Both the position numbers and the translations under genes were made by a program. A DNA stretch of 5,604 nt. It comes from a virus. Taxonomy: Duplodnaviria > Heunggongvirae > Uroviricota > Caudoviricetes. Every line of letters starts with the position of its first letter. The stretch's first letter is position 1. The DNA lies in IMG/VR virus record IMGVR_UViG_2675903289_000011; one strand, 5' to 3'. Shown here piece by piece: positions 2,893-4,647 of this stretch. The notes below the pieces were generated by a model. That model did not search any database, was not told where the DNA came from, and was given only the letters and a program-made list of their open reading frames with translations.

Positions 2893-2950
2893 CCGTAGCA
2901 CGTCGTATGCAAGAACGTGCCACGGCTGGCTGATGGATGTTCGATAGCGC
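2893..2950 (+). repeat. Copy A of an imperfect ~58-bp direct repeat, core ACGTCGTATGCAAGAACGTGC
   Basis: Ungapped alignment with 4590-4647 gives about 42 of 58 identities, including a 21-bp core with one difference and a shared TTCGATAG further on. In the frame read from 2892 it encodes TVARRMQERATAG followed by a stop. Confidence 0.5.
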
Positions 2951-3626
2951 NNNNNNNNNNNNNNNNNNNNNNNNNNNNNNNNNNNNNNNNNNNNNNNNNN
3001 NNNNNNNNNNNNNNNNNNNNNNNNNNNNNNNNNNNNNNNNNNNNNNNNNNNNNNNNNNNNNNNNNNNNNNNNNNNNNNNNNNNNNNNNNNNNNNNNNNNN
3101 NNNNNNNNNNNNNNNNNNNNNNNNNNNNNNNNNNNNNNNNNNNNNNNNNNNNNNNNNNNNNNNNNNNNNNNNNNNNNNNNNNNNNNNNNNNNNNNNNNNN
3201 NNNNNNNNNNNNNNNNNNNNNNNNNNNNNNNNNNNNNNNNNNNNNNNNNNNNNNNNNNNNNNNNNNNNNNNNNNNNNNNNNNNNNNNNNNNNNNNNNNNN
3301 NNNNNNNNNNNNNNNNNNNNNNNNNNNNNNNNNNNNNNNNNNNNNNNNNNNNNNNNNNNNNNNNNNNNNNNNNNNNNNNNNNNNNNNNNNNNNNNNNNNN
3401 NNNNNNNNNNNNNNNNNNNNNNNNNNNNNNNNNNNNNNNNNNNNNNNNNNNNNNNNNNNNNNNNNNNNNNNNNNNNNNNNNNNNNNNNNNNNNNNNNNNN
3501 NNNNNNNNNNNNNNNNNNNNNNNNNNNNNNNNNNNNNNNNNNNNNNNNNNNNNNNNNNNNNNNNNNNNNNNNNNNNNNNNNNNNNNNNNNNNNNNNNNNN
3601 NNNNNNNNNNNNNNNNNNNNNNNNNN
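2951..3626. other. Run of N (masked or undetermined sequence, 676 nt)
   Basis: Literal n characters; content unknown. Contains the 3' end of the methyltransferase gene and room for one more gene of invertase size. Confidence 0.99.
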
Positions 3627-4248
3627 TGGTTTTAACATTCTCGAAATGCTCTGAGAGTATATGTGTTAAGCCTTCTTCGGAATCTTTTGTGTTTGAAAAG
3701 ATGCCTTTCTGATTGTAAATGCGCATCAGTTTTTGACCGAAGCTATTGTGCACAACTCCATCGCCAAGAATTGTGGCTCCGTATAGAGTTCCATCATCAG
3801 TTAAGGCCTGCGCCGCATTGCGTATTACACAGCTTTTTGTAGATATATTTCCAGGCAGGCAGTGAAGAAGGTAAAACATGGAAATGGAATCAAATTGACC
3901 ATGTAACGCCGCGGGATAAGGTTCAAAAACATCATGGCTAATTTTATGTTTAATTTTTGATTCCCCAGCCCTTGTAGATGCCGCGTTCAGGCTAGCTTCG
4001 TTCAAATCCATTAAAGATATCAGACTACTCTCAGGTACGTGAGTAAGGTAAAACCCAGTTCCAACACCAATATCCAGATGGTTGTTACCTAAATGTTCCA
4101 GAAAGTGTGGAAGAAGGTGTTCCTTTGTAGGACATCCCCATGCAAGCCGATTTGATACTCCCAAAACCCACCAGTCATAAAGCTTTAGGGTAAGTGGTGT
4201 GTAAATTTTAGCCCCATCATCTGTGTTTGTTTTCATTGATTTCACCAT
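3627..4248 (-). CDS. Class I (Rossmann-fold) SAM-dependent methyltransferase, substrate unknown; 3' end runs into masked sequence
   Basis: Minus-strand ORF from ATG 4246-4248 (alternative ATG 4234-4236 with GGTG upstream). Translation MVKSMKTNTDDGAKIYTPLTLKLYDWWVLGV...HLDIGVGTGFYL...ISLMDLNEASL...FDSISMFYLLHCLP...THILSEHFENVKT. It has the SAM-binding motif I (LDIGVGTGF), an acidic residue ending beta-2 (MDLNEA) and a motif-IV-like strand. No DPPY/NPPY motif is visible, so a DNA amino-methyltransferase is not supported by the visible part. The region looks AT-richer than the fibre genes. Confidence 0.75.
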
Positions 4249-4276
4249 GTTATAGTTTTATTTGTGAATTAAATCA

Positions 4277-4305
4277 ATTATGGCGATGAATTACAAGGGG
4301 TTAAA
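4277..4305 (-). promoter_or_regulatory. Candidate sigma70 promoter for the methyltransferase gene (-35 TTTAAC, 17-bp spacer, -10 CATAAT, read on the minus strand)
   Basis: Hexamers read from the reverse complement of 4277-4305; located about 30-55 nt upstream of the ATG at 4248. Sequence-only prediction. Confidence 0.3.
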
Positions 4306-4319
4306 TGCTGCCGCAGCAT
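4305..4319. promoter_or_regulatory. Palindrome ATGCTGC-c-GCAGCAT abutting the candidate -35; possible operator or activator site
   Basis: Perfect 7-bp inverted repeat around a single central base, in the methyltransferase upstream region. Confidence 0.3.
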
Positions 4320-4340
4320 AGCGATATTGAAATAGCCTAG

Positions 4341-4574
4341 TATGCTTCGATACAGCAGGAGCCGAATGGCTGGAAGACCGTCACCACACAGTTCTACATC
4401 CAGGAATTTAGTGAGTATATTGCGCCACTGCAGGATGCTGTAGATCTGGAAATCGCAACGGAGGAAGAAAGATCGTTGCTGGAGGCATGGAATAAATATC
4501 GGGTATTGTTGAATCGTGTTGATACATCAACTGCACCTGATATTGAGTGGCCTACGAACCCTGTCAGGGAGTAA
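4341..4574 (+). pseudogene. tfa: Remnant of a tail fibre assembly (tfa) gene: C-terminal ~57 codons with no start codon
   Basis: The + frame open from 4341 to TAA at 4572-4574 has no in-frame ATG. From about 4400 it encodes ...[56 protein letters not shown], which aligns with the C-terminus of tfa(+) (...[47 protein letters not shown]). Upstream of about 4400 the similarity is lost. Confidence 0.6.
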
Positions 4575-4589
4575 TCATTGGGATTATGC

Positions 4590-4647
4590 CGCAGACACGT
4601 CGTATGCAGGAACGTGCTGCGGTTAGTTTGTGAGCTTTCGATAGTGG
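4590..4647 (+). repeat. Copy B of the imperfect ~58-bp direct repeat, core ACGTCGTATGCAGGAACGTGC
   Basis: See copy A. It lies 16 nt after the tfa remnant stop. In the matching frame an ATG at 4586 opens a 15-codon ORF, MPQTRRMQERAAVSL. Confidence 0.5.

Follow-up and report, generated by a model that had tools for sequence, protein, structure and literature searches.

What are the two imperfect direct repeats of ~58 bp that lie on either side of a methyltransferase gene in this phage DNA, and how do they relate to the gene between them? The initial annotation of the window (the whole 5,604-nt stretch analyzed here) took them for diverged 3′ ends of a coding sequence, each closing on the frame RRMQERA and possibly marking a duplication or a recombination joint. 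Both copies were found where it had placed them, copy A at 2893-2950 and copy B at 4590-4647. In an ungapped alignment (2891-2950 against 4588-4647), 39 of the 58 columns were identical instead of the ~42 first counted, and a repeat search recovered the pair as 2899-2947 and 4596-4644 (49 nt, 76% identity). The core with one difference held and spans 22 nt (2899-2920 and 4596-4617); 3 of 27 bases differ between 2899-2925 and 4596-4622. The 27-mer CACGTCGTATGCAAGAACGTGCCACGG, with up to three mismatches allowed, matched only copies A and B in the window and matched in none of 200 dinucleotide-preserving shuffles of it, indicating that the pair did not arise by chance. The copies belong to different subtypes with a mutual identity of only ~67-76%, and copy A is 100% identical to the ipaH3/CssrB-linked copy of other strains. 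The two are not products of one event.

Both copies fold into the same hairpin. In copy A (2893-2925, + strand), the hairpin consists of the 5′ arm CCGTAGCACG, a 13-nt loop (TCGTATGCAAGAA), and the 3′ arm CGTGCCACGG. The single A·C mismatch of its stem on the + strand is a G·U pair on the − strand, and the calculated folding energies were −19.5 kcal/mol (+ strand) and −21.8 kcal/mol with z = −2.9 (− strand). Alignments of 52 variants placed the 3′ flank of copy A at 2926-2950 (+ strand, CTGGCTGATGGATGTTCGATAGCGC), which holds a TTCGATAG block common to copy B; in lambda, HK97, and L003, the flanking homology runs ~60 nt further, and the corresponding continuation in the window is masked. Copy B (4589-4622, + strand; CCGCAG-A-CACG, loop, CGTGCTGCGG) has one bulged A, starts 14 nt past the stop codon of a tfa remnant, and carries the U-rich tail UUAGUUUGUG. 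Its 3′ flank (4623-4647, + strand, TTAGTTTGTGAGCTTTCGATAGTGG) was delimited by alignment and the repeat search, and its stem and loop are identical to lambda 24162-24195. Copy B is of the subtype that follows tfa, and copy A of the subtype found after the stop codon of the tail-fiber invertase gene, pin, or beside CssrB. Scores against our covariance model R1 were 65.1 bits for copy A and 62.9 bits for copy B. The element as a whole has a 10-bp stem with 8-9 G-C pairs, an optional bulged base, a loop of 11-13 nt that shrinks to 8 nt if inner T-A and C-G pairs form, and a partly conserved 3′ flank.

The stem is supported by compensatory changes. The covariance-model alignment misplaces the bulged base, and stem pairs were therefore recounted by script. 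Across 48 distinct variants, 96% of the stem cells pair, and compensatory changes occur at 4 of the 10 pairs (pairs 2, 4, 5, and 7), a level that none of 2,000 shuffles reached. The corresponding figure for a count of covariation with a separate tool was 0 of 500, and every slid control was lower. Furthermore, RNAalifold, given an alignment not fitted to any structure, returned the same stem with four pairs altered on both sides. Since the sample is mostly closely related Escherichia coli prophages, the covariation counts do not represent independent events. The IMG/VR sample was retrieved by loop sequence, so the invariance of the loop in it holds by construction; loop and 3′ flank are conserved even in second copies that were found without the loop pattern. 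These results suggest a non-coding hairpin element, conserved in structure and widespread among lambdoid and related temperate phages, to which both copy A and copy B belong (rough probability 0.65, taken jointly with the rest of the explanation developed below).

The hairpin recurs in lambda (twice, around ea47), HK97, phi80, phiP27, Stx phages, and at least 120 IMG/VR contigs, always in the orientation of the tail-fiber genes across the lambdoid phages found. It lies ~14 nt past the tfa stop or 2-3 nt past the pin stop. Among 184 occurrences, 74 directly follow a tfa stop and 48 a pin stop, and a further 36 have tfa upstream on the same strand. The first lambda copy (~22573-22606) begins ~15 nt past the tfa stop and the second (~24162-24195) falls between ea47 and ea31; both lambda records examined carry no annotation at either position. 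Its place is the end of the rightward late operon, where late transcription meets leftward accessory genes, b-region genes, or int, and in many phages this is the exact end of the Q-dependent late operon. The hairpin thus closes the tail-fiber operon of lambda-like prophages and marks a site of accessory-gene swapping, a fairly ordinary phage feature. Copy B conforms to this arrangement, sitting between opposed transcription units, the tfa remnant (+ strand) and a Rha-family regulator gene (4986-5543, − strand) convergent with it.

We next considered what the element does. It most likely acts as a bidirectional terminator that doubles as a recombination patch. As an RNA, the hairpin would stop or insulate transcription in both directions and cap 3′ ends. 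Its GC-rich stem, which closes a transcription unit just past the stop codon, is what is expected of a terminator; its loop of 11-13 nt is longer than the usual ~3-8 nt. A simple terminator scan flagged copy B (4605-4621, tail GTTAGTTTGT) and flagged neither the lambda copies nor the HK97 copy. U content in the class that follows tfa is 5.0/10 on the + strand versus 2.0/10, and in the other classes it is 5.2/10 on the − strand versus 3.5/10, with many at 7/10. Many copies have weak U tracts, some on both strands. Indirect support for termination comes from the sRNA CssrB, whose covariance model ends in this hairpin and which gave a Northern band of ~180 nt in Shigella flexneri (Peng et al. 2011, PMC3071730).

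Could the hairpin be mainly an RNA module instead, either the shared 3′ domain of CssrB-like sRNAs and 3′-UTR RNAs or a stop signal for Q-antiterminated late transcription? Conservation of the loop and 3′ flank is unusual for a terminator, and many phages have the hairpin exactly where their Q-dependent late operon ends. The CssrB family (RF02799, Shigella chromosome-encoded sRNA B) also terminates in this hairpin, at model positions 149-180. A precedent is provided by the convergent sRNAs of the PR′ moron site, whose 3′ regions are conserved (PMC4104026). The L003 copy lies inside a full-length CssrB match of 151.6 bits, whereas the window shows the terminal hairpin only; the sRNA body of 149 nt would lie under the mask, and the lack of an RF02799 match in the window is due to the masking of 2450-2890. 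Upstream of copy B and of most other members stands the coding sequence of tfa or pin in place of a CssrB body, and the copies linked to tfa or pin show no conservation of that body. Copy-B-type and HK97 copies score only 29-33 bits against the 180-nt CssrB model (gathering score 76). The conservation could, moreover, reflect frequent recombination through the hairpin patch. An RNA module as the main role is unlikely.

A related and quite unlikely possibility is a dedicated end-of-late-operon signal of Q-dependent phages, one that stops antiterminated polymerase or seeds 3′-end RNAs and also serves as the standard boundary of a cargo array that organizes exchange. Tandem late terminators downstream of lambda J were reportedly described by Luk and Szybalski in 1983. 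Our searches of the literature on lambda late terminators and on the core sequence returned nothing relevant, and the hairpin sequence is absent from the supplements of Tree et al.

The methyltransferase between the repeats is a class I SAM-dependent enzyme of 222 aa (3580-4248, − strand; Pfam Methyltransf_12/23/25/11, RefSeq annotation), of which 3627-4248 alone is visible; the stop at ~3580 is placed from relatives. Phages ev243 and 2G7b and the PhiR29 group carry this cargo gene too, 98-100% identical. A sigma-70-like promoter match (TTAACC, 16-nt spacer, CATAAT; 9 of 12 consensus positions) lies upstream at 4277-4304 on the − strand. GC content is 0.41 in the gene, 0.34 in the spacer with the promoter match, and 0.44-0.48 in the flanks. 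Beyond the promoter match is the 5′-truncated tfa remnant (4328-4574, + strand; TAA at 4572-4574), which corresponds to a tfa pseudogene in relatives (RefSeq) and matches Rfam IS009 with 110.8 bits. In the resident backbone, copy B is followed by a DUF4376 pseudogene (4671-4949, + strand), mapped by offset from RefSeq features of L002 (6296-6574) and L137 (4692-4970).

To the right, the joint of this cassette can be located. The window is 99.2% identical to ev243 over 3627-4529 and 98.3% identical to L137, a resident ompW prophage, over 4410-5604. By these BLAST limits the tfa remnant is a mosaic, with 4328-4529 from the methyltransferase cassette and the sequence from 4410 onward from the resident prophage backbone, which places the right-hand crossover between the ev243-type cassette and the backbone within 4410-4529. 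The idea of a duplication or recombination joint was thus borne out in principle, and the proposed position at copy B was not. Because this joint lies in tfa and not in the hairpin, exchange does not depend on crossing over within the hairpin. An empty site of the kind that the initial annotation had suggested looking for does exist: the sister prophage L137 has a single copy and no methyltransferase. At this same ompW prophage site, occupied in L142 and L144 and empty in L137, the cargo shows a presence/absence polymorphism. What L142 has and L137 lacks is an 823-nt cassette together with a 227-nt duplication, 90% identical, that takes in the tfa 3′ end and the hairpin. A chimeric query for the precise deletion product (pin′, tfa fragment, hairpin, DUF4376) gave no match.

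On the left, two copies do flank the methyltransferase, as had been claimed, yet copy A is not its immediate border. About 630 masked bases separate copy A from the predicted methyltransferase stop, and the left boundary copy of every close relative is found 7 nt from the stop, where the window is masked. From ST131-type and Shigella-like relatives, a second tfa 3′ fragment with hairpin is predicted at 3428-3574 (+ strand). In L002, 5053-5199 is 90.5% identical to window 4477-4624, and L002 is collinear with the window from 3627 onward. We infer that the masked fragment at 3428-3574, ending 7 nt from the methyltransferase stop, is the true left boundary of the cassette.

Copy A is a further copy of the pin/CssrB-associated subtype. 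All 60 visible bases equal L003/L004 5001-5060, which there form the 3′ stem-loop of the Rfam CssrB match. Relative to the − strand, copy A lies downstream of the methyltransferase, and its flanks (2450-2890 and 2951-3626) are masked, the − strand tail included. Directly 5′ of copy A would stand either the last invertase codons (…GGAGATAAATGA) or a CssrB body. At 2398-2414 (+ strand), ACCGAGGTTTTAGATAA presumably fits the gix/pix-type consensus as a crossover half-site, on comparison with L043 4590-4670 and L002 4753-4830. In relatives the half-site is located just upstream of the DNA invertase gene, whose start is expected at ~2469, within the mask. A full-length invertase ending at copy A was rejected: 2469-2890 is 422 nt, not a multiple of three and 133 nt shorter than the 555-nt pin. 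The position of copy A was not reproduced in any relative examined. A gapped pattern (the visible stretch upstream of the mask, 431-451 N, copy A) had no match in genome, viral, or metagenome contigs, nor did the pattern with the 361-nt spacing of the first mask in viral contigs. In megablast searches with 2398-4300 and 2398-2950, none of 5,426 complete E. coli genomes had that upstream stretch together with copy A. At 20 places with exact-protein matches to tfa and Rha, all had 447 nt versus 1,177 nt in the window, and none contained copy A.

In the favored reading, the hairpin and the adjoining tfa 3′ end may also act as a homology patch for recombination. Being among the few sequences common to otherwise different phages, the hairpin would be suited to this, and recombination at the patch would let leftward genes, each a self-contained cargo, enter and leave the slot behind the tail fibers. 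The methyltransferase cassette (tfa fragment plus hairpin, methyltransferase, promoter, tfa remnant) would have entered the resident tfa by recombination; to its right would remain the 3′ end of that tfa with its hairpin, copy B. Cargo between tfa and the element is mostly leftward and of low GC, and includes ea47, GGDEF, SopE, acyl-/acetyltransferases, GIY-YIG, EcoRII, ipaH3, and the methyltransferase.

Known systems offer parallels. At lambda stf-tfa, short and diverged homology drives mosaic formation (De Paepe et al. 2014, PMC3945230), and a cassette between lambda tfa and ea47 is tolerated (PMC3945230). The 90%-identical repeats flanking a 99%-identical insert resemble the "HR traces" of those relaxed-recombination mosaics; that work singled out no structured element, whereas here the patch is a hairpin with compensatory changes. 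The lambda b-region (tfa-ea47-ea31) has the same element after tfa and between ea47 and ea31. Morons are described as promoter-gene-terminator units (Juhala et al. 2000, as cited in PMC4104026). Like morons and the accessory or effector loci of lambdoid prophages, the cargo here appears self-contained and low in GC, is polymorphic in presence, and is set against the late operon between the tail-fiber genes and the att side; here, however, unrelated cargos share one conserved hairpin boundary rather than unrelated terminators.

It is distinctly improbable that the hairpin is a dedicated recombination site moving cargo as cassettes, in analogy to integron attC or as a GIY-YIG homing target. The likeness to attC, an analogy only, lies in imperfect hairpins with an extrahelical base and in single-gene cassettes in one orientation. 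Direct copies surround single leftward genes in lambda, L021, L026, L038, and others; the GIY-YIG gene, which sometimes adjoins the hairpin, has a flanking duplication confined to the 38-nt hairpin; a breakpoint falls within the hairpin in L081; and IS1 lies exactly at the hairpin edge in L008 and L014-L016. By contrast with integrons, no integrase or other recombinase is consistently linked (pin works on gix/pix-type sites elsewhere), junctions are imprecise, and duplications reach into coding sequence, with lengths of 227 nt versus 38 nt instead of one fixed length, which also speaks against a transposon target duplication. The 227-nt duplication at the methyltransferase cassette, 90% identical and coding sequence included, together with a right joint within tfa, is a signature of homologous and not site-specific exchange. 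Two other candidates were rejected: GCTGGTGA, seen in some variants, lacks conservation and differs from Chi by a single base, and the hairpin does not resemble REP or other host repeats.

The proposal that the repeats are diverged 3′ ends of homologous coding sequence, belonging to a small protein or to a masked gene and closing with RRMQERA, is very improbable. Its codon-level observations were accurate for the window: the caa/cag and gcc/gct differences are synonymous in that frame, copy A reaches a TGA 4 codons after the motif and copy B 5 codons after it, and an ATG-initiated ORF of 15 codons is present in copy B. Short ORFs are also known here, MKPQPRRMQERAAVGW in HK97 and MVEPQTRRMQERAAAGW in lambda, and a 44-codon ORF with the end TVARRMQERATAG recurs in relatives. 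However, the frame is not conserved among homologous copies. Of 48 distinct variants, 25 lack one stem base in the 5′ arm and 23 have it, as A, C, G, or T; this one-base indel shifts the frame, indicating that RRMQERA is not a conserved protein end. The lambda copy after tfa reads MPQKRCMK and then an in-frame TAA; the ST131 left copy reads RLKQERA, in another ORF; and among 70 distinct contexts, 21 lack an in-frame start codon upstream. The 44-codon ORF overlaps the last codons of the invertase and amounts to its C terminus read in an alternative frame, whereas the true pin frame ends …FPVGDK-TGA, 2-3 nt before the hairpin. As for which gene normally ends at this sequence, tfa and pin both stop just before the hairpin, neither is read in the RRMQERA frame, and no upstream gene had an annotated frame entering the motif. 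The synonymous-looking differences sit in the loop and at covarying stem positions. In practical terms, the RRMQERA frame of this window does not warrant annotation as a gene.

A fortuitous match, or a tandem duplication local and peculiar to this genome, has a negligible probability, since nothing speaks for it beyond the modest overall identity, the shuffles yielded no match, and each copy is closer to copies in other genomes than to its partner in the window.

If the favored reading is correct, one small hairpin would mark both the end of the tail-fiber operon and the borders of the accessory slot in many temperate phages of enterobacteria, and could serve as a landmark for finding prophage cargo, such as effector, defense, and surface-modification genes. 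Short conserved ORFs that cross the hairpin, and likewise Rfam families such as CssrB and IS009, would reflect phage module boundaries and not independent genes.

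The hairpin formed by each of the two imperfect direct repeats around the methyltransferase module, copy A (2891-2950) and copy B (4589-4647), is a conserved structure. Over the 58 positions of the initial annotation, an ungapped alignment gave 39 identical columns, fewer than the ~42 reported there, while the described core with a single difference was recovered (22 nt). When a 27-mer of copy A was searched with ≤3 mismatches, copy B was the sole other match in the window and none of 200 shuffles matched, confirming that the repeat is real. Folding showed that both copies adopt the same hairpin, consisting of CCG(T/C)AG[A]CACG, an 11-13-nt loop, and CGTGC(C/T)(A/G)CGG. 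The repeat is a real, moderately informative feature of an already known kind. In L008, L014, L015, and L016, an IS1 copy abuts hairpin B precisely at its 5' edge, with the equivalent of 4585-4594 duplicated on either side. In L081 (2874-2924), unrelated sequence replaces the 5' arm, and the breakpoint therefore lies inside the element.

RNAalifold on a plain MAFFT alignment predicted the same hairpin, with four pairs changed on both sides. In a pair count on the model-fitted alignment, 0 of 500 shuffles attained the observed values and every slid control was lower; because this alignment places the bulged base wrongly, the pairs were recounted by script. In the corrected count, 96% of cells paired across 48 distinct variants, and 0 of 2000 shuffles scored as high. 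Pairs 2 and 4 each occurred as CG and UA, pair 5 as AU, GC, and CG, and pair 7 as CG and AU, although these counts are not independent events, since the sample is rich in close relatives, and the invariance of the loop is partly by construction, since the loop sequence was used to collect the variants. The initial annotation had read the repeats as two coding ends sharing an RRMQERA frame, and its codon-level remarks are correct as read within the window. Of the 48 variants, 25 lacked the bulged base and the remaining 23 had A, C, G, or T at that position, so any upstream frame entering the hairpin shifts between variants. Furthermore, the post-tfa copy of lambda contains an in-frame TAA, and the RRMQERA frame had no start codon in 21 of 70 distinct contexts. 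These results indicate that the coding interpretation is wrong. A recurrent 44-codon ORF ending TVARRMQERATAG reads the region encoding the invertase C-terminus in another frame, and GGAGATAAATGAAACCG encodes the G-D-K-stop of pin (the tail-fibre DNA invertase), with the stem beginning 2-3 nt later.

Scanning with the loop core detected the hairpin in at least 120 IMG/VR loci, and a covariance model based on 30 variants and run on those loci revealed additional copies, including more divergent second copies. Among 184 listed occurrences, 74 were directly past the stop of tfa (the tail-fibre assembly gene) and 48 directly past that of pin; 7 were ≤400 nt from tfa with no intervening gene, 29 had tfa upstream with intervening genes, and 26 were unplaced, often because of a short flank. 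In lambda, the leftward ea47 is bracketed by two copies, one (about 22573-22606) ~15 nt past the tfa stop and the other (about 24162-24195) between ea47 and ea31. In HK97, the hairpin is located between tfa and sib/attP; phi80, phiP27, and many Stx phages carry it close to the right end of the prophage. The post-tfa class carries a U-rich tail on the + strand, and the other classes carry it on the − strand because their leader is A-rich. In other strains, beside ipaH3, the 3' terminal stem-loop of the Shigella sRNA CssrB (Rfam RF02799) has exactly the sequence of copy A; CssrB gives a ~180 nt Northern band in S. flexneri (PMC3071730). The positions, the strand-dependent U-rich tails, and the CssrB 3' end fit a putative bidirectional terminator or insulator that would separate the late operon from leftward transcription. 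Compared with a typical terminator, however, the loop is long and the U tracts are weak in several copies. A simple terminator scan flagged copy B and missed the lambda and HK97 copies.

A decayed lambdoid prophage has integrated at ompW, beside the trp operon, and the window is its right arm. Positions 1-2036 and 2398-2449 were 100% identical to IS-rich Shigella-like chromosomes of ~4.8 Mb (L009-L013), and 3627-5604 was 99.8% identical to these and 99.5% identical to an ST131-type E. coli prophage. An IS element end (1-32) and a tail-fibre C-terminus (7-321) precede tfa (323-850, + strand), an inverted tfa' (879-1412, − strand), an alternative fibre end (− strand), mask 1 (2037-2397), a 52-nt island with half an invertase crossover site (2398-2449), and mask 2 (2450-2890). 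Copy A is followed by mask 3 (2951-3626), a class I SAM methyltransferase (visible part 3627-4248, − strand), and a 5'-truncated tfa remnant (about 4328-4574), and copy B by a DUF4376 pseudogene and Rha (4986-5543, − strand). The sequence of 1-32 adjoins a 385-aa IS3-family transposase in L007-L013 and is repeated beside a second IS copy (L007 12110-12141); the tail-fibre gene is truncated by the IS, and relatives with an intact fibre align only from base 33. Positions 323-1412 and 2398-2414 are a frozen invertible tail-fibre segment with tfa and tfa' as inverted 159-nt arms. We take 2398-2414 to be half of a gix/pix-type crossover site, and no partner was found within the window. In all relatives, the invertase is truncated after 60-77 codons (e.g., L002 4824-5150, L043 4642-4992) and fused to the final ~25 tfa codons at a short LVVLVEE/LLEAW-like microhomology. 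Rfam IS009 ("Gene") matched the 3' coding part of tfa in lambda (22316-22514; L005 3317-3515; 217.7 bits) and window 4328-4531 (110.8 bits, slightly below the gathering score of 117), and looks like a conserved coding fragment, not an independent RNA gene. Directly right of Rha and ash, C4 antisense RNA, isrK, and the c4 a1/b1 target family were matched (L002 7219-7417, beginning at the window's final ~10 bases, about 5594-5604); this is a P1/P7-type c4-icd-ant immunity/antirepressor module at the prophage end.

Varied genes occupy the cargo slot behind the tail-fibre genes, between tfa and the distal copy, and most of them are leftward and GC-poor: ea47, a MASE4-GGDEF cyclase, SopE, Acyl_transf_3 and hexapeptide acetyltransferases, a GIY-YIG protein, EcoRII with its Dcm-like methylase, and ipaH3. 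The methyltransferase cassette was present at 98-100% identity in functional phages (e.g., ev243, 2G7b, and the PhiR29 group), where the hairpin lies 7 nt past the methyltransferase stop. In functional phages with this cassette (ev243, L138 5299-7923), the next leftward cargo genes encode an alpha/beta hydrolase and an OmpT-family protease, and the integrase comes after them. Downstream of the truncated invertase-tfa fusion in L043 (4642-6970) and L030 come a different terminator-like hairpin, a low-GC MASE4-GGDEF diguanylate cyclase (− strand), the conserved hairpin, sib-like sequence, and an IS2 end; here the same backbone carries a second cargo, the cyclase, in this slot. The GIY-YIG cargo, a 274-aa LEM-3-like gene, lies between two hairpin copies (L021 10968-12040; L026, L033, L038, L055, L121), and comparison with empty sites (L085, L130, L132) showed that the flanking duplication is the 38-nt hairpin only. 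This gene could be a homing-type cassette with the hairpin as its target.

In every relative examined, 296 nt corresponded to the 361 nt of mask 1 (65 nt longer in the window), and 447 nt separated the island from the visible methyltransferase, versus 1,177 nt in the window (730 nt longer). None of these relatives had copy A at its window position, and the window's arrangement was not recovered by pattern scans of genome, viral, and metagenome contigs or by megablast against 5,426 complete E. coli genomes. The extra length at 2037-2397 and 2450-3626 reflects either a rare rearrangement here or masks that are not length-preserving. Judging from collinearity with relatives, the cassette's true left boundary copy should lie at about 3428-3574, within the mask. 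Copy A, whose flanks are masked, would then be the third, lying still further downstream on the − strand.

The predicted empty site was found in L137, which carries the same ompW prophage with stf, a complete tfa, the hairpin, DUF4376', and Rha, and thus one copy and no methyltransferase. L142 and L144 have stf, a complete tfa, the hairpin, the methyltransferase, a tfa remnant, and the hairpin; relative to L137, they contain an extra 823-nt cassette and a 227-nt duplication of the tfa 3' end and hairpin (90.3% identity). Homology of the window to ev243 stops at 4529 and that to L137 begins at 4410, so the right joint falls 60-180 nt upstream of copy B, within the tfa remnant. Copies A and B do not derive from one duplication; each has closer relatives elsewhere than its window partner. 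The earlier suggestion of a duplication or recombination joint holds in spirit, given the empty and occupied sites and the duplication, but not in the location of the joint or the pairing of A with B. Taken together, the comparison of L137 with L142 and L144, the joint in the window, and the 38-nt GIY-YIG duplication point to movement of cargo by homologous exchange via the hairpin together with the tfa end next to it, in agreement with experiments demonstrating relaxed recombination at lambda stf-tfa, where a cassette between tfa and ea47 is tolerated (PMC3945230).
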